Assembly (NCBI GenBank): GCA_021778815.1
Contig: JAJYBW010000002.1
Span: 1 to 25,825 of the forward strand
Direction of reading: 5' to 3'
Length of the DNA stretch: 25,825 nucleotides
Source: Acidobacteriota bacterium
GTDB taxonomy: Bacteria > Acidobacteriota > Terriglobia > Terriglobales > Acidobacteriaceae
Of the stretch, positions 4,330 to 20,808 are shown piece after piece (positions within the stretch are counted from its first letter, which is position 1; each line of letters begins with the position of its first letter). The translations under genes and the position numbers were made by a program. The notes below the pieces were generated by a model, which had not been told where the DNA came from, ran no database searches, and was given only the letters and a program-made list of their open reading frames with translations.

Positions 4330-5469
4330 CTATTTCCCGACCATTCCGGTGGCCGATTGATGTGCGTGTTGCAGATGCAGCACGTGTGGGATGGGGGGGG
4401 CGAATTCCCATGGCTCTTTTGCCGTAACGCCAAAGATAAATACCTGGCCCGGCCTATATCTCTGCCGGACTTCGAAATTTTCAAACGCCACACCGCCTGG
4501 AACTGGGTCGCGAGAGGCCCAATAGACACGCCGGCCATTCACCCTAACACGAAGATCCGGTTCGATGTCGTCCGCTGGAACCCTCCAATACTGTGTGAGC
4601 TTGGGAAGAAGGTAGCGCCAGTGCCCCGCTGCTGCGGTATCTAGAACCTTAGACGGGGATGATTCATTCGAAGTGCAAAGAGCGATGGCATCGCCATCGG
4701 AAGTCTGCAACATTTCATCCAGCGGGTAATTTTCATGTTCGATGAACGCGTCACCAGCGTAGGACGCGTAAAGCTTGCGACTGTCTACAACGCGGTCCTT
4801 GAGCCAGAGCCAGCGTAATCTCTCGTAATTTCCCATTGTTGCGGTCACCGTTAACTCTTCCACGGCCGGGCTGTCGTTATATTGGTACACTGCCAAACGA
4901 AGCTCATTGGGGTGGTCGCTGTCTATCGATGCCATCAGATATACGTGCGCGCCATTTGCCGCAAACCGCTCTACGTCGATCTGCACGGTGAGCCTTTCTA
5001 TTGGAGAGACACGGCTTGAGAAAGCGTGCAGGTTGCCGCGGAACCCATCAACCGAAGCTGTTTTAACAAGGTCTACCCACAACCGTTTGCCGCGAGACCC
5101 CGGATCCATAAGGCTTGGCTCCAACTCACTGAATGCCTGTCGGCTGGCGCGGCTACCAGCGCCAAACACCACAGGTTCAATCGCGATGAAATTCAGGAGA
5201 TCGGGTTTGCCGGTCTTCGCAGAAATCACGCCTACGCGGATGAGTCCGCGAGGCCCCGGCAATCCTCCTGGAGAGGGTATGCCAAAAACAATGCCATCCT
5301 TACGGCCCCAGATCAGCGGGTCACCCCGTTTATGAGGTCGAATCCACTCCGAATCTATATGACTTGTAACTTGGCCATACGCGCTGTGAGGCTCCAAAGC
5401 CGCGGATAGCAGGAACACCGCCGCGAGGAACAGGAGGCTCGCCGCCATCGAAAATCGGGCAATCGACAT
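4330..5469 (-). CDS. Uncharacterised secreted protein (379 aa), putative member of the sugar regulon
   Basis: Long ORF with signal peptide (MSIARFSMAASLLFLAAVFLLSAA...AYG|Q), rich in Trp/aromatic and beta-strand-like segments, divergent from lacI with an operator-like palindrome upstream. Confidence 0.85.
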   Translation of the reverse strand: MSIARFSMAASLLFLAAVFLLSAALEPHSAYGQVTSHIDSEWIRPHKRGDPLIWGRKDGIVFGIPSPGGLPGPRGLIRVGVISAKTGKPDLLNFIAIEPVVFGAGSRASRQAFSELEPSLMDPGSRGKRLWVDLVKTASVDGFRGNLHAFSSRVSPIERLTVQIDVERFAANGAHVYLMASIDSDHPNELRLAVYQYNDSPAVEELTVTATMGNYERLRWLWLKDRVVDSRKLYASYAGDAFIEHENYPLDEMLQTSDGDAIALCTSNESSPSKVLDTAAAGHWRYLLPKLTQYWRVPADDIEPDLRVRVNGRRVYWASRDPVPGGVAFENFEVRQRYRPGQVFIFGVTAKEPWEFAPPIPHVLHLQHAHQSATGMVGK

Positions 5470-5516
5470 ATGAGTCTCTTCGGATGATTGGCAGAATTTT
5501 AAAAACTTTGCTTGGA

Positions 5517-5554
5517 GTATTTAAACGGATCAACGATTTAATCGTTTAAAATAC
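5517..5554. promoter_or_regulatory. LacI-type operator region upstream of the secreted hypothetical gene
   Basis: TTAATCGTTTAA at 5538-5549 (TTAA-N-CG-N-TTAA with a LacI-style central CG), overlapping palindrome AACGATTTAATCGTT (5532-5546) and an extra half-site TTAAACG at 5521-5527. Confidence 0.6.
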
Positions 5555-5768
5555 TGTACACCACAAATCAGATCGACGTAGGCATTGCTAAATCATGCGA
5601 GCGAATTGAGATAAAAAACAGGCATTTGCCAAAGTTGAGGACAGATTATTCGCCGCTTGAAGTGATTGCGGCGTGAGATCAAAGTGCTCAGGCGGCTGTA
5701 AGATGAATCAGATTTCCTGCTCTAATCGCGCCTCTGGTTGTTTGTGAGGCCTGGGGGTTCACCCATCC

Positions 5769-6779
5769 ATGCCTTCTATCGTGGAAGTAGCAAAACGCGC
5801 TGGAGTATCGATCGCCACGGTTTCGAACGTGATCAGGGGAACCAAGCGTGTCAGCCCCGCTTTACAGGAGCGCGTTCAATTGGCCATTCGGGACTTGGAC
5901 TATTATCCGAATGAATTGGCGCGCAGTCTGAAGGTAAAGCAGACGCGAATGCTCGTCATGGTGCTCCCGGACATCACCAATCCTTTTTTCCCTGAGATCA
6001 TTCGGGGTGCTGAAGATTGCGCTTTTCAACGCGGCTATTTCTTGATGACGGCGAACACAGATGAGCAAATCGGGCGTGAGCGCAGAATCGTTTCGGCGCT
6101 CCGTTCCTATCGAGTCGATGGAATTCTGCTGGCTTCCGCGCCGGGAAAAGATATCAGCCATATTGAAAGCGTCCTACGGGCTGGATTATCAATCGTCTGC
6201 CTGGATAGAACTGTTTCCGGAATCGAGACCGACGCGGTGTTGTTGGACAACGTTCGGGGGGCACAAGAATGCGTGCGCCATCTGATCCAGGCCGGCTATC
6301 GTCGAATTGCAATCATCACCGGACCGTTAAAATTGCTGACCGGGCGCGAGCGCCTGCGCGGCTATGGGGACGCACTTCGAGAGGCAGACATAGAGCCTGA
6401 CCCCGCGTTGATTTTCGAGGGAGATTTCCGTGAAGACTCCGGCTATCGTTTGAGCAAAGAAATGCTGCGAAGACGCCGCAAGCCTTCCGCAATATTTGTT
6501 TGTAACGGCGTTATGACACTCGGCGTGTTGAAGGCGTTGGAAGAGACTGGCATGCTATGCCCGAATGATATTGCCTTGGCGACATTTGACGATTTGATGC
6601 TCGACCATTCTTTTCATCCCCACTTGACTACTGTCGTACAACCCAGTTATGAGATCGGCGCCCGTGCGGCGACCATCCTGATAGACCGTATCGAAGGCAA
6701 ATTGCCGAAGGAACCTCTCGTGGTGCGAATCGCGCCAACGCTTATCGTCCGCGAGTCTACAAGACCACGAAGGCCGTAG
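5769..6779 (+). CDS. LacI/GalR-family transcriptional regulator
   Basis: N-terminal HTH SIVEVAKRAGVSIATVSNVI, hinge YYPNELARSLK, PDITNPFF, periplasmic-binding-protein-like sensor domain, LTTVVQP. Confidence 0.97.
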   Translation: MPSIVEVAKRAGVSIATVSNVIRGTKRVSPALQERVQLAIRDLDYYPNELARSLKVKQTRMLVMVLPDITNPFFPEIIRGAEDCAFQRGYFLMTANTDEQIGRERRIVSALRSYRVDGILLASAPGKDISHIESVLRAGLSIVCLDRTVSGIETDAVLLDNVRGAQECVRHLIQAGYRRIAIITGPLKLLTGRERLRGYGDALREADIEPDPALIFEGDFREDSGYRLSKEMLRRRRKPSAIFVCNGVMTLGVLKALEETGMLCPNDIALATFDDLMLDHSFHPHLTTVVQPSYEIGARAATILIDRIEGKLPKEPLVVRIAPTLIVRESTRPRRP

Positions 6780-7035: not shown

Positions 7036-7047
7036 TTAAACGTTTAA
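7036..7047. promoter_or_regulatory. LacI-type operator upstream of the TonB-dependent receptor
   Basis: Perfect 12-bp palindrome TTAAACGTTTAA ending 16 bp before the ATG at 7064; 11/12 identical to 5538-5549. Confidence 0.7.
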
Positions 7048-7063
7048 CATTCGGAGCGAATCG

Positions 7064-10000
7064 ATGAAAATAGTGACTGCAAAAATCTGGCCAGTTGTCG
7101 CTCTGTCCGTCATGCTGACGGTCTGGATATTTCCGAGCCTCACTTGGGCGCAGGCCTACCGTGGAGCGATCAAGGGCCAGGTGGAGGATCAGACGCATGC
7201 TGTTGTCGCTGGAGCGCAGGTTTCACTCAAAAATCAGGCCACAGGTGTGGTTTCGACGACCGTATCGGGTAAATCGGGCGAGTTCAGCTTCCTGAATCTC
7301 ATCGCCGGACACTACCGGCTCATCTCCACAATGCAAGGGTTTCAAACAAATATCCAGCAGGATCTTGCTGTGAATCTGGGAAGCACCGTTGCCGTGACCG
7401 TCATGCTCCAGGCAGGTGAGACCAAGCAGACCGTGACCGTTTCCGCAAACTCCGCCAGCGTTGAAAGCCAGACCTCGGAGATTGGCACGACTGTTACACC
7501 CCAGGAGATCAAGGATTTGCCGTTGCCGATGAGTGGCGACAGCAGAAACCCTCTAAGCTTTGTTCTTCTAACGCCTGGCGTTAGCGGTTCCGAGCCTGGG
7601 GCTACCCCGGACTACAGGCTGCATATCAGTGGTTCGGTCAGCGAAGCCGATCAGGTCTATATCGATGGCGTCCCGGTCTTGAATACAAACGAAATGGGGA
7701 ATCTGTCAACGGACCATCCCCCGCTCGATTCCATTTCAGCATTCAAAGTCATCACGAACAATCAGACCGCCGAATACGGTCTCGCCAGCGGAATCGTTTC
7801 CTTCGGATTCCGTTCAGGCACCAACGATCCGCATGGAAGCCTGTTTGAATATGTACAGAACTCCGCGCTCAATGCCGCCGGCTACGTGACAGATGCCCTT
7901 CATCAAAAGAAAGCTCCATTGAGCCAAAATGAATATGGTGGCACGTTCGGCGGCCCGGTGCGGATCCCGAAACTTTACGACGGCCGGAACAAAACTTTCT
8001 TCTTCGTGGACTATACCGGATTTAGGTACCGCCCAAGTTACAACAACGCGGCCCTGACAACGATTCCAAACGAGTATCGCACGGGAAACTTCTCCCAATC
8101 ACTCGGAACGCAATTGACGTCTGCTGGAGCACCAGTCTTTGATCCAGCAGGACGCCCAGTTTATAACGGTGAAATTTACGACCCGCTTTCCGCTCATACC
8201 GTAGTCGGGCCCGATGGGAAGGACTATGTTGTGCGCGATCCATTCCCTGGCAACATCATTCCGACAGGTCAGCCAGGATTAAGTACGGTATCGCAAACCA
8301 TCCTTAATAGCTTTCCGCAGGGCGATAACAACGCTCTCTTCGACAACCTTTTCCGCAATCAAGCTACCAAGACAGACGAACAACGCGTCGTTGTCAAAAT
8401 AAACGAAACTATCTCACCAAAACACTCGTTATACGGCAGTATTTTCATGGGTACTTTTACTACCTCCAATAATGGTGGCTTAAACGACTTAGATGCCAGC
8501 CTAACCACAGACCCGACGAAGCAATTCCGCGTGACCTACAACTACACGCCTTCCCAGCATGTGTTTAATAACCTCAATATTGGCTTTTTGCGGGACACCA
8601 GTTTTAACGGAACTCTACAGCCCGGACCAGGCCTCACTGCATTAGGTATACAAGGGCTGCCTCCGTTTGCGAGCAACAGCCCTTATCCATTGATCCAGAT
8701 GGGCACACTGACAAATAGTATCGGATCTACGAATGCATCGTCCGAAGCGCAAAACAGATTCTTCGAGGATGACAACCTGACACTGTTGCACGGCCGTCAT
8801 ATGTTTACTCTCGGCGGTGAGGTTCGGCGCTTGCAACGAAATGAGACGGGAATTCCCGGCGGTTCGTTCGATTTTGAACCCACAGAGTCAGGGCTCAATG
8901 GAACAGGATTTATCAATGGCACGCAAGCAATATCTATTCCATCTGGCACAGGAAACCCAGTGGCCAGTTTCCTATTTGGCGGTCTGGACTTTGCAAATGT
9001 AAGTTACCCGATTTCATCGGAATATCGCTGGCTCCAAACGGGCGTTTATTTCCAGGACGACTGGCAGGCTACCTCCGATCTTACTTTGAATCTTGGGATT
9101 CGTTATGACATCCAGGTTCCACGCACAGAAGTCCATGGTTACGCATCAACCATGGATCCAACCCTTCCAAATCCCGATGCAGGCAACCTACCCGGCGCAT
9201 ATACATACTACGGGAAAGGCAAGGGTCGCAATGGCATGGCCCGTATAGGCAAGACAGATTTTCTCGGACTTCAGCCAAGAATTGGCTTTGCCTACTCACC
9301 GGGAGACCATAAGACCGCTATCCGCGGAGGCTTCGCCATCAGCCGGCCGATTGGAAATGACAACATAGAGAACGGCATTAGCGGGACACTTTACAACACA
9401 GGCTTTTCTACTTTGGCGACAATTAATCGGCCTCAAGACTATGTTGGCTCGCCAGCCTATTATTGGGACAATCCTTTCCCGTCGTCATCCATCAGCGGAG
9501 TGGATCTCAATCCTGGAACCTTGGTTGGGAATGATAACCCCACCATGATCCATCCCTCCGCCGGCTTGCCTCCGACCCAGTTGTATTGGTCCGCGCAGGT
9601 GCAACAAGCGTTTCCTGGGAATATGGTGGCCAGTATCGGCTATGTTGGAATGCACACCTATCACTTGGGGATATGGTCCAAGCCAAACCAGATCAATCCC
9701 TTAGTTGCACAGCAATACAGTGCCGCCGCCGCCAAAGCAGGACTCCCCTTAAACGACTATTTGTCCCTTCCCGTCACTGATTCCAGGTCAGTGGTTGCCC
9801 CTCCGTGGTCTGGCTTTGTTTCTACATTCGGTTCGGGCGCGACCATTGGTCAGGCGTTGCGTCCTTGGCCACAATATGGCGATGTAGACAATCCATTCAA
9901 TCCTATCGGCAGCGTTACTTACAACGGCCTGCAAACAAGTTTGCAAAAGCGTATTTCGCGGGGACTTACTTTCCTAGTGTCATACACCTGGGAAAAAACT

Positions 10001-10783
10001 TTGGGTGATGTGGATTCAAATAGCGGTCCCAATGCTGGGGCGGAGAACGCGATTTACGCCGGCTCGTTCTTTCAGAACTATTACGACAGCAAGGCGGAAC
10101 GTTCCGTTACCAGTTCCGACATTCCACAAGTGCTATCTATCAGCTACACCTACCATCTTCCGATTGGAACGGGGCAGCGCTTCCTGAACCACACTGGCGT
10201 GGCTGGGAAGGTCTTGAGCGGCTGGGAAGTTTCTGGCATTCAGCAGTACCAGAGTGGGCGTCCGATCCATATTGAATACGATGCATTTGGAAGTTCGAAT
10301 CCCTATTTTGGCGGTGGCGACGGCTTCAGTTTCCGGCCTAACATCGTTCCTGGACAACCGCTGAAGAACCCGGCTTACCGCAGCAGTTGTTCCGGTCCCG
10401 TCCAATCCACTCCCGGCCGCAGCCCATGCCAGTTTTATATCAACCCGGCCGCCTTCTCGTTGCCGCCGTCTGGCGAGTTTGGCAACGCTCCCAATTTACT
10501 CGGCGGCTTGCGCATGCCACGCTTTTATGACGAGGACCTTTCCATCGCCAAGTCAACGGTGATTCACAACACGATGAATTTGCAAATCCAGGCAAATTTC
10601 TTCAATGCCTTCAATCGTACTGTGTTCTCTGATGGGGGCAACGCTCAAACATTTATCATCAATAATGCTCCACCCGATCTAAGTCCGGCTTCTTTGGCAA
10701 ACTCAAGTACGGTGTTCGGAATCATGTCGGCCCAACAAAACGGACCAAGGATCATACAATTCGGGGCGAGATTCGAGTTCTGA
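7064..10783 (+). CDS. TonB-dependent receptor (Oar-like, N-terminal carboxypeptidase-regulatory-like domain)
   Basis: 1239 aa; signal peptide; GAIKGQVEDQTHAVVAGAQVSLKNQATG; plug motif TAEYGLASG; YFQDDWQATSDLTLNLGIRYD; C-terminal beta-signal IIQFGARFEF. Confidence 0.95.
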   Translation: MKIVTAKIWPVVALSVMLTVWIFPSLTWAQAYRGAIKGQVEDQTHAVVAGAQVSLKNQATGVVSTTVSGKSGEFSFLNLIAGHYRLISTMQGFQTNIQQDLAVNLGSTVAVTVMLQAGETKQTVTVSANSASVESQTSEIGTTVTPQEIKDLPLPMSGDSRNPLSFVLLTPGVSGSEPGATPDYRLHISGSVSEADQVYIDGVPVLNTNEMGNLSTDHPPLDSISAFKVITNNQTAEYGLASGIVSFGFRSGTNDPHGSLFEYVQNSALNAAGYVTDALHQKKAPLSQNEYGGTFGGPVRIPKLYDGRNKTFFFVDYTGFRYRPSYNNAALTTIPNEYRTGNFSQSLGTQLTSAGAPVFDPAGRPVYNGEIYDPLSAHTVVGPDGKDYVVRDPFPGNIIPTGQPGLSTVSQTILNSFPQGDNNALFDNLFRNQATKTDEQRVVVKINETISPKHSLYGSIFMGTFTTSNNGGLNDLDASLTTDPTKQFRVTYNYTPSQHVFNNLNIGFLRDTSFNGTLQPGPGLTALGIQGLPPFASNSPYPLIQMGTLTNSIGSTNASSEAQNRFFEDDNLTLLHGRHMFTLGGEVRRLQRNETGIPGGSFDFEPTESGLNGTGFINGTQAISIPSGTGNPVASFLFGGLDFANVSYPISSEYRWLQTGVYFQDDWQATSDLTLNLGIRYDIQVPRTEVHGYASTMDPTLPNPDAGNLPGAYTYYGKGKGRNGMARIGKTDFLGLQPRIGFAYSPGDHKTAIRGGFAISRPIGNDNIENGISGTLYNTGFSTLATINRPQDYVGSPAYYWDNPFPSSSISGVDLNPGTLVGNDNPTMIHPSAGLPPTQLYWSAQVQQAFPGNMVASIGYVGMHTYHLGIWSKPNQINPLVAQQYSAAAAKAGLPLNDYLSLPVTDSRSVVAPPWSGFVSTFGSGATIGQALRPWPQYGDVDNPFNPIGSVTYNGLQTSLQKRISRGLTFLVSYTWEKTLGDVDSNSGPNAGAENAIYAGSFFQNYYDSKAERSVTSSDIPQVLSISYTYHLPIGTGQRFLNHTGVAGKVLSGWEVSGIQQYQSGRPIHIEYDAFGSSNPYFGGGDGFSFRPNIVPGQPLKNPAYRSSCSGPVQSTPGRSPCQFYINPAAFSLPPSGEFGNAPNLLGGLRMPRFYDEDLSIAKSTVIHNTMNLQIQANFFNAFNRTVFSDGGNAQTFIINNAPPDLSPASLANSSTVFGIMSAQQNGPRIIQFGARFEF

Positions 10784-10792
10784 GCTGTGACC

Positions 10793-12205
10793 ATGCTTCC
10801 CACAATCGTGTTCTTTTTAAGTGCGGCACCTCTTTTACTTGGCCAAACGCCCAACGGCACTCTTCAGATGCACGCTCAGGCGGCACAGCAAGCGGAGCTG
10901 CGAAAGGACTTCCCGGCAGCAGTGCGGGAATATGAGGCGTTGGCCAAGCTACTGCCAAATAGCGCGGAGGTTCAGAGCAATTTAGGCGTGGCGCTCTATT
11001 TTGAAAATGACAAGCGTAGAGCCATTCAAGCCTTTCATAAAGCACTCGGCTTGGATTCGACGCTATTTGTGCCTCACTTGTTTTGCGGGCTAGCTTGGTA
11101 CAAGCTTTCGAATCCGGATGCTGCAGTGCCCGAGTTAGAAAGGGCAGTGCAGCTCAATGGAGCCGATGCCATAGCTCACACTTGGCTGGGTTATGCCTAT
11201 ATTGCGCAGTTTCGATACCGGAAGGCGATCGCGGAGTTACAGACCGCAGGGCAAATCGATTCTGGCAATATCGACATCTGGTATGCACTTGGTCAGGCTT
11301 ATACAGAAGCTGGAAGTGAAGCCACTGCGAAGCTGCTTAAGGTCGCGCCGAATGCCGGCCGCGTGTGGCAACTCGCGGGCGAACAAGCGCAATTGCAGGG
11401 GGACCGCCCCAAGGCCCTTGAATTGTTTGAAGGTGCGTACCAGCGCCGTCCAGACCTCACAGAATTACGCCCACTGATTGCCAAGCTTGGGGGGACCGCG
11501 ACCGCTGCTTCAAGCTCGCCTGCAGTGAAGGATCGACAAGAAGATGGACTTTACAAGGTAGCCCACAACGATGAGCAACAGGCGCGCGCTGCTTTCCAAA
11601 AAGTGATTGAGATTGCTCCGGATTCCTACCGTGCTCACCAGATTATGGCGGAGGCATATAGTGCCGAACAGCATTACGGAAAATCCAACGAAGAATATGA
11701 AAAGGTTGTAGCTCTAAAGCCGGATCTGCCAGGCATTCATGAAGCAATGGGAAAAAATCTGGTTCGCGCCGGAAAGCTCCAGGAAGCGTTAAGTGAGTTC
11801 CACGTTGAGCTCCAGAGTCAGCCAGACTCTTCAATGGCATACATGAATGTCGGAAACGCGTTGCTGTTGATGCAACATGACAATGAGGCAGAGAAAATGT
11901 TGCGCCAATCCCTTCAACTGGATCGGCCTCCTTCAGAGACTTACAAGCTTTTGGGGAAGATCGATCTGACTCGCCGAAACTATAGCGGAGCAATCGAAAT
12001 GCTTACAAAATATATTGGTTTGGCTCCGGGCGATTCGGATGGATATTACATGTTAAGTCGTGCCTATCGGGCTATAGGCAACAAATCGGAGATGACTCGC
12101 ATGCTCGGTCTATACAAGAGCACATCCGACCTATACAAGGACACCCCCCAAGCTACGAAATCCGGCGACGGCACAGGAAGTGCCCTACCTGATTTGAAGA
12201 AATAA
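10793..12205 (+). CDS. Secreted tetratricopeptide-repeat protein
   Basis: Signal peptide MLPTIVFFLSAAPLLLG|Q, then many TPR units (AEVQSNLGVALY, IAHTWLGYAY, YRAHQIMAEAY, AYMNVGNALL). An alternative GTG start exists at 10787. Confidence 0.92.
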   Translation: MLPTIVFFLSAAPLLLGQTPNGTLQMHAQAAQQAELRKDFPAAVREYEALAKLLPNSAEVQSNLGVALYFENDKRRAIQAFHKALGLDSTLFVPHLFCGLAWYKLSNPDAAVPELERAVQLNGADAIAHTWLGYAYIAQFRYRKAIAELQTAGQIDSGNIDIWYALGQAYTEAGSEATAKLLKVAPNAGRVWQLAGEQAQLQGDRPKALELFEGAYQRRPDLTELRPLIAKLGGTATAASSSPAVKDRQEDGLYKVAHNDEQQARAAFQKVIEIAPDSYRAHQIMAEAYSAEQHYGKSNEEYEKVVALKPDLPGIHEAMGKNLVRAGKLQEALSEFHVELQSQPDSSMAYMNVGNALLLMQHDNEAEKMLRQSLQLDRPPSETYKLLGKIDLTRRNYSGAIEMLTKYIGLAPGDSDGYYMLSRAYRAIGNKSEMTRMLGLYKSTSDLYKDTPQATKSGDGTGSALPDLKK

Positions 12206-12222: not shown

Positions 12223-13833
12223 GTGAATGAAGCAATCCTAGTCACGAGCGGAGATCTGCGCCAGTCCGCCAACCGAGCGTGCTGGCCGGCGCAGGAAGAT
12301 CTGGAGCGCAGGCTCATGCAATGTTTTCACGATGAGGGAGTTTCGGTGCGCCGCGCTTTTCCCGTCGACCCGCATCTGAGGCATGGTTTCATCTCCGGTC
12401 AGCGCATGGGGATGGATGTTTTTGCTACGATTCCGCCGGAATCAAACCTGATATTTGCGACGGCTGCATGGCAGTACAGCCATCATGTGCTGCCGGGACT
12501 GCGCTTCCATCGCGGGCCGATTCTCACGGTGGCGAATTGGTCTGGGCAATGGCCAGGCCTCGTGGGGCTGCTGAATCTTAATGGCTCCCTGGTCAAGGCC
12601 GGAGTCCCGTTCAGCACCATCTGGAGCCAGAGCTTCTCGGACGAGTACTTTCTCAATGGGATCCGGGAGTGGATCAGGAGCAAGCGTATTTCCCATGACG
12701 CAGGTCATGTGCGGGATCTCGATATCAGTGCGCTTCCAGATGCCGCAGTTTGTTTAGGGCATCAACTCGCGGATACTCTCAAGCGCCGGAAGGCGATTCT
12801 CGGCATCTTCGACGAGGGATGTATGGGGATGTACAACGCCATCATCGACGATGAACCCTTGAATGCCTTGGGAGTCTTCAAGGAGCGCCTGAGCCAGTCC
12901 GCGCTGGTGGCAAAAATGCGCACCGTACATGAAGGAGAGACCCTCAAGGTGCGGCAATGGCTGGAGGGCAGGGGCCTGCGGTTCGTGACCGGGAAGGACG
13001 CGCAGTCTGAACTGACGGATACGCAGATCCTTGAACAATGCAGGATGTACATTGCCGCAGTGCGCATCGCACACGAATTCGGTTGCGACGCGATTGGCAT
13101 TCAGTACCAGCAAGGCCTGAAGGAGATGGTTCCGGCATCAGACCTGGTGGAAGGGCTGCTGAATAATGCAGACCGTCCGCCGGTGTTCGACGAGCACTCC
13201 GGTAAGGAACTCTATGCAGGCGGGCCGCTGCCCCACTTCAACGAGGTGGACGAGTGTGCCGGGCTCGATGCTCTGGTGACAAACCGCTGCTGGACAGCAC
13301 TCGAACTCGATCCCGCAACAACGCTGCACGATGTGCGTTGGGGGGAGCATTACAAGGGCGAAGGGGTGGACGATTTTGTGTGGGTGCTTCAAATATCGGG
13401 AGCTGCGCCCGCCAGCCATTTCGTCGATGGGTATCGTGGAGCTTCGAGCGAGCGTCAACCGCCAATGTATTTTCCCCTGGGCGGGGGAACCCTCAAAGGT
13501 GTTGGCAGACCAGGGGAGATTGTGTGGAGTCGCGTTTTCGTGGAGGGTGGAGCCCTACACGCCGACATTGGGCGTGGCGCTGTGGTCGAGCTTCCAGGGG
13601 AGGAAGTTGACCGCCGCTGGAAGCATACGACCCCACAATGGCCCATGGTCAGCGCGGTTTTCCCTGGAATTTCGCGCGACGCTTTCATGGCTCGCCATCG
13701 CGCTAACCACGTCAATATCGCGTATGCGTCCGATGCGGATACGGCCAACAAGGCGCTCGCTGTAAAAGCTGCAATGTTCGACTCACTGGGCGTGAGGGTG
13801 CACCTCTGCGGCCCGGCTGGTTTAGGGAAATGA
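12223..13833 (+). CDS. L-fucose/arabinose isomerase-family sugar isomerase (cytoplasmic)
   Basis: LGIFDEGCMGMYNA, VFKERLSQSAL, GCDAIGIQYQQG, PHFNEVD, TTLHD, C-terminal HRANHVNIAY; GTG start with AAGGAG RBS; no signal peptide. Confidence 0.85.
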   Translation: MNEAILVTSGDLRQSANRACWPAQEDLERRLMQCFHDEGVSVRRAFPVDPHLRHGFISGQRMGMDVFATIPPESNLIFATAAWQYSHHVLPGLRFHRGPILTVANWSGQWPGLVGLLNLNGSLVKAGVPFSTIWSQSFSDEYFLNGIREWIRSKRISHDAGHVRDLDISALPDAAVCLGHQLADTLKRRKAILGIFDEGCMGMYNAIIDDEPLNALGVFKERLSQSALVAKMRTVHEGETLKVRQWLEGRGLRFVTGKDAQSELTDTQILEQCRMYIAAVRIAHEFGCDAIGIQYQQGLKEMVPASDLVEGLLNNADRPPVFDEHSGKELYAGGPLPHFNEVDECAGLDALVTNRCWTALELDPATTLHDVRWGEHYKGEGVDDFVWVLQISGAAPASHFVDGYRGASSERQPPMYFPLGGGTLKGVGRPGEIVWSRVFVEGGALHADIGRGAVVELPGEEVDRRWKHTTPQWPMVSAVFPGISRDAFMARHRANHVNIAYASDADTANKALAVKAAMFDSLGVRVHLCGPAGLGK

Positions 13834-13870: not shown

Positions 13871-15460
13871 ATGAGCTTGGTTGCGGGCGTCGACTTTGGA
13901 ACGTTGAGCGTTCGGGTGTCTATATTCGACAGCCGAAAAGGCCGCATATCATCCGGGGTGGCGGAATACCCGCTGAACCGTTCCGCCCAGGATCCTAACC
14001 TCGCAACCCAGAGCCATGTCAAACAGATGGAGGCGCTCGAGCGCGCCATGCGGCGTGCGCTTGCTTCGGGAAATGTGGATGGGAGTGAAGTCAGGGCCTT
14101 GGCGTGCGATACCACCGGTTCCAGTGTCATTCTGGTGGGAGCAGAACTTGAACCGCTCGACGATTACTACTTGTGGTGTGACCATCGCGCCTGGCGAGAG
14201 GCGCGAGAGATAACGGCCGCTGCACACGCGCAAAAGCTTGAAGCGATCGAGTGGTGCGGCGGCACCTATTCTTCGGAATGGGGATTTTCAAAGCTCCTGC
14301 ATTGGCTACGCCACAACCCCGAAAAGCGCGACCGCCTGGTGACGGCCATGGAAAATTGCGACATGGTTGTCGCGACCCTTTGCGGCATCACGCTGGCAGC
14401 CGACGTGCCGCGTAGCATCTGCGCCATGGGCCACAAATGGATGTGGAATCCGAAATGGGGCGGTCTGCCGTCACAGGAATTTCTTACCTCCGTCGATCCG
14501 CTGTTCGCAGGCATTTGCGAGAAGCTCTCCGGACGCTATGAAAGCTCGGATAGGATCGCGGGAAGGCTCAGTGCTGCGTGGGCAAAGCGGCTCGGATTGC
14601 GAGCCGGTATTCCTATCCCTGTTGGAGCGCTCGACGCCCATTGGGACGCGATTGCGGCGAACATTCGGCTGGGAGACGTGGTGAATGTCATCGGGACTTC
14701 CACCTGCATTATCGGAGTAAGCGCGCAACAAGCCCTGGTGCCAGGAGTGTGCGGCGTCGTACCCGGTTCGGTGCTGCCGGAATACGTCGGCATTGAAGCG
14801 GGATTGTCGGCCGTTGGCGACCTGTTTGATGGCATCGCCCGTCGGGCAGCAATGGATGCGCCCACCTTAAGCCAAGGGCTGGATTCGTATCGCGCCGGAC
14901 AGACCGGATTGTTGCGCATGGTGTGGGACAACGGCGATCGAACGGTGCTGGTCAATCCAAACCTGGGGGGCGTCACGCTGGGGTGGAACATTTTGAGCAC
15001 TGCGCAGGATGAACTGTTCGCGGCCATCGAAGGGACCGCGCTCCACACCCGCATCATTCTGGAACGCATGGGGAAAAAGGGCGCGCCGGTCGAGCGAGTG
15101 ATTAATGGCGGTGGTATTCCCCAGAAAAGCGCTGTGCTGAACCAGGTGTACGCGAACGCGCTGAACAAGCCGGTATTGGTTCCCTTTGGCGACGTAACCA
15201 GCCTCGGCTCGGCAATCTTCGCATTTCTCGCAGCCGGAGAATTTGCGTCTGTCGAAGAAGCGCAGGATGCACTCTGTCCTCCGCACCGAACCTTTCTGCC
15301 CGACGCGCGCGAGGCGGAGACCTACGACCGGCTATATTTACTTTTTAACGAATTGTATTTCTCTCTGGGAGCGCCGCACAGCTCTGCTGTGCGCATCGGA
15401 CACATACTGCCGTCATTGCGTGAAATCGCCTTCAAGTTACAGGAACTCGAGCCCCGATGA
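13871..15460 (+). CDS. FGGY-family carbohydrate kinase, ribulokinase-like
   Basis: GVDFGTLSVR phosphate motif, ACDTTGSS, LWCDHRA, YSSEWGFSK, GALDAHWDA, IGTSTC, INGGGIPQK. Confidence 0.92.
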   Translation: MSLVAGVDFGTLSVRVSIFDSRKGRISSGVAEYPLNRSAQDPNLATQSHVKQMEALERAMRRALASGNVDGSEVRALACDTTGSSVILVGAELEPLDDYYLWCDHRAWREAREITAAAHAQKLEAIEWCGGTYSSEWGFSKLLHWLRHNPEKRDRLVTAMENCDMVVATLCGITLAADVPRSICAMGHKWMWNPKWGGLPSQEFLTSVDPLFAGICEKLSGRYESSDRIAGRLSAAWAKRLGLRAGIPIPVGALDAHWDAIAANIRLGDVVNVIGTSTCIIGVSAQQALVPGVCGVVPGSVLPEYVGIEAGLSAVGDLFDGIARRAAMDAPTLSQGLDSYRAGQTGLLRMVWDNGDRTVLVNPNLGGVTLGWNILSTAQDELFAAIEGTALHTRIILERMGKKGAPVERVINGGGIPQKSAVLNQVYANALNKPVLVPFGDVTSLGSAIFAFLAAGEFASVEEAQDALCPPHRTFLPDAREAETYDRLYLLFNELYFSLGAPHSSAVRIGHILPSLREIAFKLQELEPR

Positions 15461-16785
15461 CCATCAACTCGCACGTCATAAAGAGTACTGCCGTCGGCGC
15501 ACTCGGCGGACTGCTTTTCGGATTTGATACGGCAGTCATTTCGGGAACCACGCATGCATTGACGGTGACATATCACCTTTCGCCCGCATTGCTCGGCGTG
15601 ACTGTTTCCAGTGCTCTGGTCGGCACCGTAATCGCCGCGATGACCGCCGGCATTCCCGGGCAAAAATTTGGCCGGCGCGACAGTCTTCGCGTGATGGCGA
15701 TGTTCTATGTGGTTTCGGCGCTGGGCTGCGCCTTTGCATGGAACTGGCCTGCGCTTATATTCTTTCGATTTATGGGCGGCATCGGGATTGGTGGCTCATC
15801 CGTGCTCGGTCCCATGTACATCGCAGAAATTGCCCCCGCCGAGTGGCGGGGCAGGGTGGTAGGGGTTTTCCAGGTCAACATTGTCGTCGGCATCTTGCTG
15901 GCGTACCTGTCGAATTTTTTCCTTCGCAGTCTGCATCTTGGAGTCAATACATGGCGCTGGCAGCTTGGCATCTCCGCAATCCCAGCCGTCCTTTTTCTGG
16001 TTGCATTGTTTGGCATTGCGCGCAGCCCGCGATGGCTGGCAACCCAGGCCAAGCTGGTGGAAGCGATGGATGTGCTGCGCCTGACCGGCATGCCGGAACC
16101 GGAAAAAGAACTGGAAGAGATTGTCGCCTCCATTCATCTGGAGCGGTCGGTCCGCGCCGAGCCGCTGTTCTCCAGGAAATACCGCCGGCCGGTCTTCCTC
16201 GCTATTACTGTGGGGATGTTCTGCCAGCTCTCGGGGATCAACGCAATTCTTTATTATCTGAACGATATTTTCTCTCTGGCAGGAGCATCTCAGATTTCGG
16301 GCGATCTGCAGGCTGTGGCCGTGGGCGCGACAAATCTGGTGGCAACGCTACTCGCGATGGCGGTGATCGATAAAATCGGCCGCCGGAAGCTATTACTGGG
16401 AGGGACCGTCGGTTTGACGGCGGCCCTGACAGCCATTGCTCTCATCTTCTTGACCCGCAGTCATTTTGGATGGTTGCTCTGGCTGCTGATGGCGTATATC
16501 GCCTGCTTCGCCGTCTCTCAGGGGGCGGTGCTATGGGTCTACATCAGCGAGGTATTTCCCACCACGGTGCGCTCCAAAGGTCAAAGTCTGGGCAGTTCTT
16601 CCCACTGGGTGACAAATGCGCTGATCTCTCTCGTTTTTCCATTAATGGCGAAGTCATCGGGAGCATCCCCGTTCATATTTTTCGCAGCGATGATGGTAAT
16701 CGATTTCTTCATGGTGCTGTTTTACTACCCCGAAACGAGCGGCATCTCTCTGGAACAGATGCAGCACAATTTCGGCATCGACTAA
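15457..16785 (+). CDS. Sugar porter family MFS transporter (XylE/AraE-like)
   Basis: ALGGLLFGFDTAVISG, KFGRR loop, PMYIAEIAP..RG, QLSGINAILYY, IDKIGRRKLL, WVYISEVFP, PETSG; 12-TM pattern; ATGA overlap with the kinase. Confidence 0.97.
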   Translation: MTINSHVIKSTAVGALGGLLFGFDTAVISGTTHALTVTYHLSPALLGVTVSSALVGTVIAAMTAGIPGQKFGRRDSLRVMAMFYVVSALGCAFAWNWPALIFFRFMGGIGIGGSSVLGPMYIAEIAPAEWRGRVVGVFQVNIVVGILLAYLSNFFLRSLHLGVNTWRWQLGISAIPAVLFLVALFGIARSPRWLATQAKLVEAMDVLRLTGMPEPEKELEEIVASIHLERSVRAEPLFSRKYRRPVFLAITVGMFCQLSGINAILYYLNDIFSLAGASQISGDLQAVAVGATNLVATLLAMAVIDKIGRRKLLLGGTVGLTAALTAIALIFLTRSHFGWLLWLLMAYIACFAVSQGAVLWVYISEVFPTTVRSKGQSLGSSSHWVTNALISLVFPLMAKSSGASPFIFFAAMMVIDFFMVLFYYPETSGISLEQMQHNFGID

Positions 16786-16899: not shown

Positions 16900-18066
16900 A
16901 TGAAGCGACTTGCCGTTGTCATCTCGATCATTGTAGGTATTACTGGCAGCGCATATGCGCAAAGTGCAAGCTGGCAGCCCGATCTGACCCGGCAGCAGAC
17001 CTATGTCCAACATCGCGCCTCCAGTTCCGATCCCACTGGCACCAATGCGGACTTCCGTGTGGTTGCTCCTGGCGCGACGTTGACGGTACTGGACGTCGAC
17101 GGTCCGGGCACCATCTCCCATATGTGGTTCACGATCAACGACGGTGAATCATACAACCTCAAGCGTATTGTCCTGCGCATGTATTGGGATGGAGAGCAGT
17201 CTCCAAGTGTCGAGACGCCTATCGGAGACTTTTTCGGCCTCGGGCTTGGGTACTACTACAACTGGCACTCCGAATTGCTCTCGGTGGGCAGCGTCCAGGC
17301 TTTGAACTGTTTTTTCCCGATGCCATTTCGGCACCATGCGCGCATTACGATTACGAACCAAGGGAAGCAGCCCATCGGCAGCTTTTACTACAACATCGAT
17401 TACCGCACGTATTCGCATCCACTCCCACCAGACAGTCTGTATTTTCACGCCGAGTACCGGCAGGCGCAGCCGAACCATGGCTGGACCGACAAGTGGGAGA
17501 CTAACCAGGATCCTCTGGTGAACGACAAGGCGAACCTCTACGGCAAAGGCAATTATGTATGGCTGGACGCCAAAGGCCACGGGCAATTCGTGGGCGTGAC
17601 CATGTCCGTGTTGCAGAACCAGGACATGTGGTGGGGCGAGGGCGACGACATGTTCTTCATCGATGGCGCAAGACGGCCATCCATAGCCGGAACCGGTACT
17701 GAGGACTATTTCCTCGGAGCATGGGATTTCGGTGGCAAGCCCTTCTCGTATCCGCTGTACGGAGCTCCGGTGGTAGGCAAAGAGGTTGCCGGGAGTCGGT
17801 CCAGCGTCTACCGTTTTCATCTCGATTCGCCGATCCCGTTCACGAAATCCATCCAGGCCACCATCGAGCATGGCAACGCGAACGATCGCTCCGACAACTA
17901 TTATTCCGTAGCATACTGGTATCAAGCCGAGCCGCATGAGCCGTTTCCTCCATTACCGCCTGTGGACCAAAGGCTGCCCCGGTTACAGTGCGTGGGTGGT
18001 CCCGGAAATAGTCATGGCCTGAACGACTCCAATTCCTATACCGGCATCTCTCAACATCCGCAGTAA
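16900..18066 (+). CDS. Secreted glycoside hydrolase family 172 (DUF2961) protein; candidate alpha-D-arabinofuranosidase / alpha-D-fructofuranosidase
   Basis: Signal peptide (…GSAYA|Q); DGPGTISHMWFT, LRMYWDGE..PSVETPIGDFFG, NCFFPMPF, YFHAEYRQ, WWGEGDDMFFIDG and GTGTEDYF (both candidate catalytic Glu present), YRFHLDSPIPF, TIEHG; GGAGG RBS. Confidence 0.93.
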   Translation: MKRLAVVISIIVGITGSAYAQSASWQPDLTRQQTYVQHRASSSDPTGTNADFRVVAPGATLTVLDVDGPGTISHMWFTINDGESYNLKRIVLRMYWDGEQSPSVETPIGDFFGLGLGYYYNWHSELLSVGSVQALNCFFPMPFRHHARITITNQGKQPIGSFYYNIDYRTYSHPLPPDSLYFHAEYRQAQPNHGWTDKWETNQDPLVNDKANLYGKGNYVWLDAKGHGQFVGVTMSVLQNQDMWWGEGDDMFFIDGARRPSIAGTGTEDYFLGAWDFGGKPFSYPLYGAPVVGKEVAGSRSSVYRFHLDSPIPFTKSIQATIEHGNANDRSDNYYSVAYWYQAEPHEPFPPLPPVDQRLPRLQCVGGPGNSHGLNDSNSYTGISQHPQ

Positions 18067-18156
18067 ACCTTGGCGGGAGCTTCGATCATCGCGAGGAGCG
18101 TGCGCCCGTCGAATGATCACTGGGGGAATAGTTCTGGGGCAGGATGGAGGCAGTTC

Positions 18157-18279
18157 ATGAACATGCGTACGATGTTTCTGGCTTCGCTGATTTTCTCCGG
18201 TTGCCGCCTCTGTGCCACCACTCGGTTACAGGCCCCGAACGGTTCGATACGCTTGGATGTGAACATCGGGAGATTTCTA
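18157..18279 (+). pseudogene. 5' stub of a secreted protein (possibly GH97-like N-terminus), truncated
   Basis: GGAGG RBS then MNMRTMFLASLIFSGCRLCA|TTRLQAPNGSIRLDVNIGRF; interrupted at the IS630 target TA. The GH97 resemblance (LxSPDG...) is weak. Confidence 0.45.
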
Positions 18280-19305
18280 GAGCAGTTTCTGAAATAGCGT
18301 AGACTCATCCTGGCGAGACTCTGCGGCGAGTGAATCGATGGCGAAGCCATATGGGGATGATTTGCGCCGTAAGTTTCTGTTTGCTTACGATCAGGGCGAG
18401 GAGACGCTGGAGGAACTTGCGGATCGCTTCCTGGTAAGCGTGGGCTGGGCGAAGAAGATTTCCGCGCAACGGAAGCGCACCGGACAAGCTGAGCGGGTGC
18501 CGCATCGGCCCGGACGTAAATTGCGGGCCGGAACCGAGGCACAGCGTCAGGTGATGGATTGGGTGGCATCGAAGCCCGATCTGACGCTGGCCCAACTACA
18601 GGCCAGGTTGTACAGCGAGGCTGGCGTTTCGCTCAGTTTGGGGCGGATCTGGCATCTGTTGAAGAAGCTGGGGCTGCGGCTGAAAAAAAGTCACTCCACG
18701 CAGTCGAGCGGGACACCGAGGCCAACCTCAAGCGTCGTGAAGAGTTCGTTGCGCGCATCCAGTCGATCCCGCCGGAGCGGCTGATTTTTCTGGACGAGAG
18801 CGGCATCACTACCTCAATGACGCGGCTCTACGCGCGCGGCACGGGAGGCAAACGCATTCATGAGGCGACCCCTGGCGGACACTGGAAAATCATGACGATT
18901 CTGGGCGCCATGAGCCTGAACGGCATGGTCGCAACCATGACCATCGAAGAGCCCACCGACAGGGACATCTTTCTGGCCTACGTCGAACATCTGCTGGTCC
19001 CGGTCCTGAGGCCCGGCGACGTGGTGGTCATGGACAACCTCAGTGCGCACAAGGCACCTGCGGTTCGCACATGGATCGAACAAGCCGGTGCCGAGCTGCT
19101 CTATCTCCCGCCCTATTCTCCCGATCTGAACCCTATCGAGAAGGCTTGGGCAAAACTCAAACAACTGCTTCGCACCGCCAAGGCACGAACGAAAGAAACC
19201 CTCGATCAGGCCATCGCTGATGCTCTGCCATGCATCACGCCCGCCAATGCACAAGCTTGGTTCAGACTCCCCATCAACGGTTTTACAGTAAAACAGAAAA
19301 TGCTC
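18280..19305 (+). mobile_element. IS630-family insertion sequence (~1.03 kb), inserted at CTAG with TA duplication
   Basis: TA at 18278-79 and 19306-07. Terminal inverted repeats TAGAGCAGTTTCTG (18278-18291) and CAGAAAATGCTCTA (19294-19307) match at 13/14. Confidence 0.92.
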
Positions 19306-19308
19306 TAG
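18338..19308 (+). CDS. IS630 transposase, HTH and DDE ORFs joined by a -1 frameshift at A7G (18683-18690), ~323 aa fused
   Basis: ORF A ends RLKK; the -1 frame continues [42 protein letters not shown] (D-D-E triad). Confidence 0.92.
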
Positions 19309-19312
19309 CTGC

Positions 19313-20808
<1,496 letters not shown>

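Follow-up and report, generated by a model that had tools for sequence, protein, structure and literature searches.

Mycobacterial arabinogalactan and lipoarabinomannan (LAM) are built around a core of D-arabinan, whose degrading enzymes were identified only in 2021-2023. Among the glycoside hydrolase (GH) families involved, GH172 has a jelly-roll fold, GH183 a β-propeller, and GH116 an (α/α)6 fold. Gene sets for D-arabinan degradation are known in Dysgonomonas gadei and Microbacterium arabinogalactanolyticum (PMC10115798, PMC10509167). A D-arabinose isomerase, kinase, and porter module is present in these published clusters, the isomerase and kinase converting D-arabinose to D-ribulose 5-phosphate (PMC10509167, PMC10115798), and the GH116 enzyme has been described as a β-sandwich plus an (α/α)6 barrel (PMC10509167). 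We analyzed a 25,825-nucleotide stretch of DNA (hereafter, the window) from an acidobacterial metagenome-assembled genome (MAG; contig JAJYBW010000002.1), in which a stop-free open reading frame at 4330..5469 on the minus strand encodes, by translation, a secreted protein of 379 amino acids, P0001. The P0001 family gene or protein is called X below, L and G numbers denote loci and genomes, and unprefixed coordinates are window positions. It is well supported that P0001 is a real, conserved, exported protein that is functionally tied to D-arabinofuranoside utilization. Its conservation in the D-arabinan clusters of at least four phyla makes X a strong candidate for a step that the pathway still lacks.

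The evidence for this link includes the neighbors of X. D-Arabinan markers lay within 10 kb of X in 26 of 82 non-redundant loci, a TonB receptor was a neighbor in 22 loci and a TPR protein in 18, and the X-containing gene sets matched the published D-arabinan clusters (PMC10115798, PMC10509167). Across the Acidobacteriota many loci repeat one order, with X on one side and LacI-receptor-TPR-isomerase-kinase-porter-GH172 on the other; some of these loci also have a GH31 gene within the operon and, immediately downstream of X, a DUF4185/GH183 gene. The latter arrangement was seen in L001:693-3368 (the L006 locus), L008, and L030, where GH31 separates the TPR gene from the isomerase gene and a divergent DUF4185 gene is found downstream of X; these DUF4185 copies score near or under the Pfam cut-off. 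The Vicinamibacteraceae loci L034 and L035 have the order receptor-X-GH172 with gaps of 35-37 bp, and the Bryobacteraceae locus L037 has GH172-receptor-X. Inside and outside the phylum, junctions are often shorter than 120 bp. Outside the Acidobacteriota, where X is 35-45% identical, X adjoins GH172 genes in Sumerlaeales (L048) and occurs as SusC-SusD-GH172-X-GH172-DUF6786-GH116 in Chitinophagaceae (L056/L058), as SusC-SusD-X-GH172-...-LacI-DUF6786-FucI-MFS-GH172 in the isolate Parafilimonas terrae (L091), and as SusCD-sulfatase-GH183-X-MFS-GH172-...-FGGY-FucI in a Balneolaceae MAG (L084). The order in a Bacteroidales MAG (L108) is LacI-GH172-X-GH183-GH183-SusCD-DUF6786-MFS, with 2-bp and overlapping junctions, and Bacteroides intestinalis (L111) has GH116, FGGY, MFS, DUF6786, FucI, LacI, and, divergently, X, GH172, SusCD, GH97, and GH183. 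The gene-neighborhood check that an earlier note on this DNA had recommended thus ties the homologues to D-arabinan-type loci with GH172 and the isomerase in several phyla.

In a maximum-likelihood tree, the D-arabinan context was spread through both the acidobacterial and the Bacteroidota/Balneolota halves of the family, and the context labels took at least 5-6 state changes versus 16 for shuffled labels. The genome G095 (99% complete) was fully syntenic with the window locus and gave no GH183 or GH116 match, the GH183 search having been validated on positive controls; GH172 and X are its only candidate glycan-active proteins. Three related genomes had GH172 in other contexts and lacked X, the isomerase, and the kinase, which together with the synteny of G095 indicates that X travels with the whole D-arabinose locus and not with GH172 as such. 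X adjoins GH183 in five loci (L006, L008, L084, L108, and L111) and GH116 in three, and so is not a simple replacement for a missing endo-arabinanase or β-arabinofuranosidase. No clearly matching protein of ~355 residues was present in the part of the D. gadei polysaccharide utilization locus (PUL) 42 proteome table that we considered (PMC10115798 supplement).

The regulatory DNA points the same way. A LacI-type operator, TTAATCGTTTAA, is located at 5538..5549, 69 bp before the P0001 ATG, and sits in an imperfect dyad (5516-5555). It is an 11/12 copy of the perfect palindromic operator TTAAACGTTTAA at 7036..7047, 17 bp before the ATG of the TonB-receptor gene. With up to two mismatches allowed, the 25.8 kb contain these two matches and no others, where 0.29 would be expected, and only 3 of 100 shuffled sequences reached two; the operator shared with the receptor gene, as the earlier note had claimed, was thereby confirmed. 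A promoter-like site (TTTAAA, 18-nucleotide spacer, TAAAAT) at 5496..5525 on the minus strand matches the consensus, but with 3 such sites versus 2.0 expected it is not significant alone. Equivalent operator sites were found in the spacer between X and LacI in L002, L007, L008, L009, L010, L016, L018, and L089, and TTAAA[CG][CG]TTTAA precedes X, the receptor gene, and (where present) GH183 in nine syntenic acidobacterial loci. In Chitinophagaceae the same 12-bp operator as in the window, TTAAACG[AT]TTAA, lies upstream of SusC and DUF6786 (L056:3684, L058:3633/16280, L091:4511/4578/4644/14089, and L093:14008), a pattern suggestive of LacI orthologues that recognize the same DNA in different phyla. 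The divergent LacI-X pair was also seen in L001, L002, L003, L089, and B. intestinalis L111. Phylogenetic footprinting supports placing the P0001 gene in the LacI regulon of the locus, with repression predicted, and the conserved operator in related loci likewise favors its claimed membership in a LacI-controlled sugar locus.

The P0001 N terminus has a short polar start followed by an 18-residue, Cys-free hydrophobic stretch, AASLLFLAAVFLLSAAL. From a reading of the sequence, residues 1 to ~32 (5374..5469, minus strand) form a Sec signal peptide region without a lipobox Cys and with candidate cleavage after about A24 or G32. The AlphaFold2 (AF2) model has a predicted local distance difference test (pLDDT) score of <60 ahead of residue 40, and all homologues have a hydrophobic N terminus with a conserved W[IV]RP motif after it; the secretion signal noted earlier is upheld on these grounds. 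In Bacteroidota, the X copies carry signals of the signal peptidase I (SPI) type without a lipobox, and the neighboring DUF6786 proteins are lipoproteins. A lipoprotein or surface location of the Bacteroidota X proteins was rejected in view of these signals, which in the usual PUL model imply a periplasmic protein acting on imported oligosaccharides or on the released sugar.

Searches of Pfam-A and of NCBIfam each returned 0 matches for P0001, whereas all other genes of the locus were recognized, in agreement with the earlier statement that it belongs to no recognizable family. A word-index search retrieved 1149 relatives, all labeled "hypothetical" and devoid of Pfam domains, and an exhaustive HMMER search gave 426 family representatives at 50% identity; none of the close relatives is a characterized protein. 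Family loci numbered 454 among ~185,000 species (one genome scanned per species), and X was present in 1 of 299 good genomes sampled from the same phylum as the window. The family is thus widespread but sparse, and its presence or absence across the phylum is too rare for a co-occurrence test; GH172 was found in 49 of the same 299 genomes (the unpublished genome G023 included), a count on which none of our conclusions rests. On the basis of an alignment of 62 sequences with identities down to 27%, ten columns are invariant (E115, G127, T211, R219, F242, N311, R313, G326, E330, and N331) and about 40 are near-invariant. The motifs LLNFIAIEP, AFSELE, TATMGNYERLR, and GGVAFENFE, which the earlier note had judged conserved-looking, start at residues 91, 112, 209, and 325, and all of them fall on such columns. 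The codon of invariant Glu115 in the FSELE motif (5125..5127, minus strand) would specify a catalytic or ligand-binding carboxylate, and that of invariant Glu330 in GGVAFENFE (4480..4482, minus strand) a candidate catalytic carboxylate. No His was invariant or near-invariant in the 62 sequences, H176 being variable and replaced in many members. The richness in Trp and Tyr mentioned in the same note is real but only moderate (9 Trp, 2.4%; 12 Tyr, 3.2%). When members were split by genomic context into D-arabinan-linked proteins, an acidobacterial paralogue clade (group B), and all others (the Planctomycetota-Verrucomicrobiota-Chlamydiota, PVC, group), ~63 positions, including E115, T211, R219, N311, R313, E330, and N331, were conserved alike in all three groups, which fits one conserved chemistry and not a diversifying binding module.

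Several relatives are fused to other domains, with the architectures GH97+X, GH99/GH71-like+X, and X+GHL10. A Pirellulales protein of 1217 residues (L066:9719-13372) joins X to a carbohydrate esterase family 4 (CE4) polysaccharide deacetylase and a CelD_N+GH9 module, and a Foldseek search of AFDB retrieved an X+NPCBM protein in which the NPCBM carbohydrate-binding module is C-terminal. Over 656 residues, the GH97 half of the GH97+X fusion (P0172) and the GH97 encoded in the B. intestinalis D-arabinan locus share 48% identity, and this fusion is a Rosetta-stone link to the D-arabinan pathway. Domain arrangements of this sort typify the catalytic or binding modules of carbohydrate-active enzymes (CAZymes) and are unusual for monosaccharide mutarotases. 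The C-terminal extensions of relatives of 500-550 residues had no Pfam match. We conclude that the family is apparently isofunctional and undescribed; the linkage to D-arabinan across phyla, the conserved polar site, and the CAZyme-type fusions bear out the proposal that P0001 is a credible new carbohydrate-active protein.

AlphaFold2 run on the family alignment gave a confident all-β model (pLDDT 91.6; predicted template modeling score, pTM, 0.86) in which the conserved domain, residues 40-356 (4402..5352, minus strand), is predicted to be a galactose-mutarotase-like β-supersandwich, the fold of GalM-type proteins. This fold is used by mutarotases, as the catalytic domain of a few hydrolases and lyases, and as an accessory domain of many enzymes. 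Foldseek searches of the PDB and Swiss-Prot gave supersandwich matches of low template modeling (TM) score only (the YidC P1 domain and GH36 N-domains among them), none of which stood out; these are uninformative on function. The AFDB search retrieved family members and fusions. A profile search (hmmsearch) of all PDB chain sequences, GH174 and GH186 included, gave chance hits only (E ≥0.5). As modeled, P0001 thus combines a novel sequence family with an established fold, and the structure prediction and fold search that had been advised earlier yielded a predicted supersandwich with a strongly conserved polar site, which supports the carbohydrate-active reading.

Three sets of described proteins invite comparison. 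GalM, YeaD, YMR099c, and DUF4432 (Pfam clan Gal_mutarotase-like) resemble P0001 in standing alone, in size, and in belonging to a sugar-catabolic cluster, and perhaps also in having a conserved Glu on a C-terminal strand. The catalytic residues of Escherichia coli GalM are H104, H175, and E309, and E330 of P0001 occupies a position near the C terminus comparable to that of E309 by eye, which hhalign did not confirm. P0001 differs from the superfamily in that Pfam and hhalign detect no sequence relationship (Aldose_epim, PF01263, was unmatched, and the hhalign probability was ≤0.2 against both E. coli GalM and an 11-sequence GalM alignment), and the catalytic His residues of GalM seem to lack a conserved counterpart. 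The known members are cytoplasmic, whereas P0001 is exported and has many more conserved polar residues. Collinear GalM motifs picked out by eye (KRRW/KRLW, TNHVY/MGNY, and GLALESEF/GVAFENFE) were not relied on, the middle one being unsupported by hhalign. The GH174 endo-1,3-fucanases (8jd7 and 9k1g) and the GH186 OpgG/OpgD β-1,2-glucanases (1txk and 8x18) are catalytic supersandwich hydrolases that, like P0001, are secreted or periplasmic; their acidic catalytic residues are on the sandwich, the carboxylates of Fun174A (GH174) being D119/E120/E218. Compared by sequence alone, they show no similarity to P0001, and their substrates and contexts are different. GH172, GH183 (DUF4185), and GH116 subfamily 4 (Al-Jourani 2023; Shimokawa 2023) share clusters, presumed substrate, and regulon with P0001, and secretion is common to P0001 and the Bacteroidota and Acidobacteriota GH172 proteins. 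P0001 is nonetheless of an unrelated sequence family, unmatched by the Pfam profiles of any of the three (PF13810 for GH183/DUF4185 and PF11175 for GH172/DUF2961 among them), and its presence together with each of them makes a distinct activity probable.

Our preferred, still tentative reading, which we rate as quite possible, is that P0001 is a new periplasmic glycan-active enzyme of hydrolase type that works on imported D-arabinofuranose (D-Araf) oligosaccharides beside GH172. D-Araf-containing oligosaccharides would reach the periplasm through the TonB-dependent receptor, and soluble P0001 would act on them through a conserved polar cleft formed by the invariant E115 and E330 with R219, R313, N311, N331, T211, and conserved Trp, Tyr, and Phe residues. 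It would cleave or unblock a linkage or decoration beyond the reach of the neighboring GH172 exo-α-D-arabinofuranosidase, which would then free D-arabinose for import by the major facilitator superfamily (MFS) porter, isomerization to D-ribulose, and phosphorylation. More guardedly, we suggest that the family may be a new glycoside hydrolase or other glycan-cleaving family, with a supersandwich catalytic domain and, as its target, a D-Araf linkage or decoration of arabinan of the mycobacterial type that is outside the scope of GH172, GH183, and GH116. We infer the periplasmic location, the catalysis, and, above all, the bond attacked.

Several observations weigh against this proposal. No sequence similarity of P0001 to any glycoside hydrolase or solved structure was detected, its fold is commoner in mutarotases and non-catalytic domains than in hydrolase catalytic domains, and a single cleft lined by the conserved residues is predicted from where they fall in the sequence. 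No D-arabinan-specific residue signature emerged across the three context groups, and the richest loci hold X alongside both GH116 and GH183, leaving no obvious "missing" linkage. The acidobacterial paralogue clade, a monophyletic set of 14 Acidobacteriaceae loci, has a conserved non-sugar neighborhood, and most Planctomycetota and Verrucomicrobiota copies have heterogeneous neighbors with no recognizable D-arabinose (D-Ara) genes. A 102-gene census of the neighbors of non-acidobacterial copies revealed no recurrent partner except a few sulfatases. As to the paralogue clade itself (L011, L013-L015, L017, L019-L025, L027, L029, and L046), its synteny comprises Lnt, TetR, and DUF4440 upstream and a phospholipase C/phosphoesterase and a DeoC aldolase downstream, its conserved residues are unchanged, and one MAG has both paralogues (L021 and L046).

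The earlier note had put P0001 forward as the endo-enzyme or the mutarotase of the locus; neither role is established, and the two fared differently, the endo stand-in being disfavored and the mutarotase a live rival. As a mutarotase, which we regard as doubtful, P0001 would be a periplasmic D-arabinose mutarotase or furanose-to-pyranose converter, speeding the change of the α-D-arabinofuranose released by GH172, a retaining enzyme, to the anomer and ring form that the MFS/FucP-type porter and FucI-type isomerase accept. An analogous logic applies to NanM, a periplasmic sialic-acid mutarotase, and to YihR, a sulfoquinovose mutarotase. The modeled fold is mutarotase-like, and X stands tightly beside a monosaccharide-releasing GH172 in at least seven lineages, is kept in minimal loci consisting only of the receptor, GH172, X, porter, isomerase, and kinase, and co-occurs with GH183, GH116, and GH97 without redundancy. 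Conservation across the family without specificity drift suits one small invariant substrate, and an invariant Glu near the C terminus is found as in GalM. These points have to be set against the failure to match Aldose_epim or the GalM profile, the missing conserved His, and ~30 conserved polar residues plus three conserved Arg, more than a monosaccharide pocket needs. Fusions to the polymer-binding NPCBM and to endo-type GH modules would be odd for a monosaccharide enzyme; moreover, arabinose rings interconvert spontaneously and the MAG does not lack a canonical aldose 1-epimerase. The endo-enzyme alternative, an extracellular or surface endo-D-arabinanase replacing the GH183 that the window lacks, strikes us as very improbable. 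It draws on the absence of any GH183 match in the window, the MAG, or the syntenic G095, on GH174, which combines the same fold with endo-glycanase activity, and on the many conserved polar and aromatic residues, which could make several subsites, yet in the five loci listed above X has one or two GH183 genes as direct neighbors, some of them sharing its operator. In addition, the lipobox-free SPI signal of the Bacteroidota proteins favors the periplasm, where endo-attack on a polymer is unexpected, and the fold is unrelated to that of GH183, with no Pfam match.

A non-catalytic role is unlikely in our estimation: P0001 would be a periplasmic glycan-binding or accessory protein that holds D-Araf oligosaccharides for GH172 or the transporter, or a partner subunit of GH172. 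The supersandwich is a common non-catalytic module (in GH31, GH36, GH97, GH38, and GH2 enzymes and in YidC), whole GH enzymes carry the domain as an added part, in the manner of a binding module, and in several loci X is next to SusC/SusD or a TonB receptor. Invariant charged and polar residues are, however, retained across clades of differing context, ~330 residues is large for a binding module, the Bacteroidota copies are non-lipoproteins, unlike known surface glycan-binding proteins, and the X+NPCBM fusion would be left without a catalytic part. Finally, we think it quite unlikely that the function has nothing to do with D-arabinan, being for instance a housekeeping role in the envelope or in general carbohydrate metabolism, and that the gene was repeatedly captured beside LacI or GH172. 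The 14-locus clade with its non-sugar synteny, the many PVC members without D-Ara neighbors, and the unchanged active-site-like residues in both are what such a role would lead one to expect. Chance capture is nevertheless an unlikely source of neighbors that recur, at 35-45% identity, in five or more lineages and that have a common operator and junctions of <120 bp or overlapping. GH172 also occurs elsewhere in 9 of 10 genomes whose X copy is outside a D-Ara locus, which is weak evidence because these genomes are CAZyme-rich.

Turning to the other genes of the locus, all on the plus strand, the LacI-family regulator that diverges from the P0001 gene is at 5769..6779 (Pfam LacI and Peripla_BP_1/3), followed by the TonB-dependent receptor at 7064-10783 (OMP_b-brl_4, CarboxypepD_reg, and Plug) and the TPR protein at 10787-12205 (Pfam TPR), which forms an uptake module with it. 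The D-arabinose catabolic module consists of a FucI/AraA-like isomerase (12223-13833) and an MFS sugar porter (15457-16785), both assigned by Pfam/NCBIfam, with a ribulokinase-type FGGY kinase between them (13871-15460; PRK04123, 505 bits versus a 428-bit cut-off). A secreted GH172 (DUF2961; E 6e-84) of the exo-α-D-arabinofuranosidase family is at 16900..18066. The isomerase (536 residues) has FucI domain matches below the Pfam cut-offs, its acidobacterial orthologues lack Pfam annotation, and a canonical 591-residue FucI takes its place in Bacteroidota loci; it looks like a divergent version or a non-orthologous replacement of FucI. The host MAG comprises 437 contigs and is 73% complete. Its only GH172 is that of the window, and DUF4185 had no match in either the window or the MAG at this completeness, so that the claim of an exo-acting GH172 without a recognizable endo-enzyme was borne out; a canonical aldose 1-epimerase is encoded elsewhere in the MAG (G000:C247:1067-2044). 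Two GH116-like genes are on other contigs of the MAG (G000:C205:14-934 and G000:C207:2407-3276). A tblastn search for a GH97 stub downstream of the window GH172 found none, and neither the serine recombinase nor the IS630 transposase of the window (18066-20800) had homologues flanking the syntenic loci L089, L002, and L006-L010 within the fetched range. Within its family, the locus was present in 1 of 25 genomes, a patchy distribution that fits horizontal spread. The MAG derives from acid mine drainage, and the DNA runs in which the sequence occurs are metagenomes of such drainage; none of the RNA runs searched contained it.

A second uncharacterized protein, DUF6786 (PF20583), recurs in the Bacteroidota and Balneolaceae D-arabinan loci (L056:12883-14169, L058:12290-13525, L084:16685-17971, L091:14104-15396, L108:18974-20185, and L111:5657-6880). 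All inspected copies have a lipoprotein signal, with a Cys after the signal, and DUF6786 may be a surface component; no mention of it was found in the literature. An ESM feature search placed both DUF6786 and X near the DUF4380/YidC-like supersandwich families, which serves as a lead only. DUF6786 differs from X in being a lipoprotein with a Pfam model and in its absence from acidobacterial loci; hhalign showed no relationship between the two (probability 0.4), and an AF2 model of DUF6786 from 5 sequences was unusable (pLDDT 45). GH97 also recurs in D-arabinan-type loci, at L111:18270-20243 in B. intestinalis and, as a fragment, at L031:16350-17211 in Blastocatellales.

Enzymes for D-arabinan are sought as tools to analyze cell walls, for tuberculosis diagnostics based on LAM, and in connection with the recycling of actinobacterial necromass in soil and gut. 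The published D-arabinan clusters are said to hold proteins "lacking annotation," and the P0001 family is one such group, whose homologues in the cultured P. terrae and B. intestinalis make its function directly testable. Were P0001 a mutarotase, it would be, to our knowledge, the first exported enzyme of supersandwich fold with that activity. If the hydrolase reading is true, the family would be a new hydrolase family with an unusual catalytic fold, and a D-Araf-specific hydrolase would add a fourth class of D-arabinan pathway enzyme, extending from soil Acidobacteria to human-gut Bacteroides.

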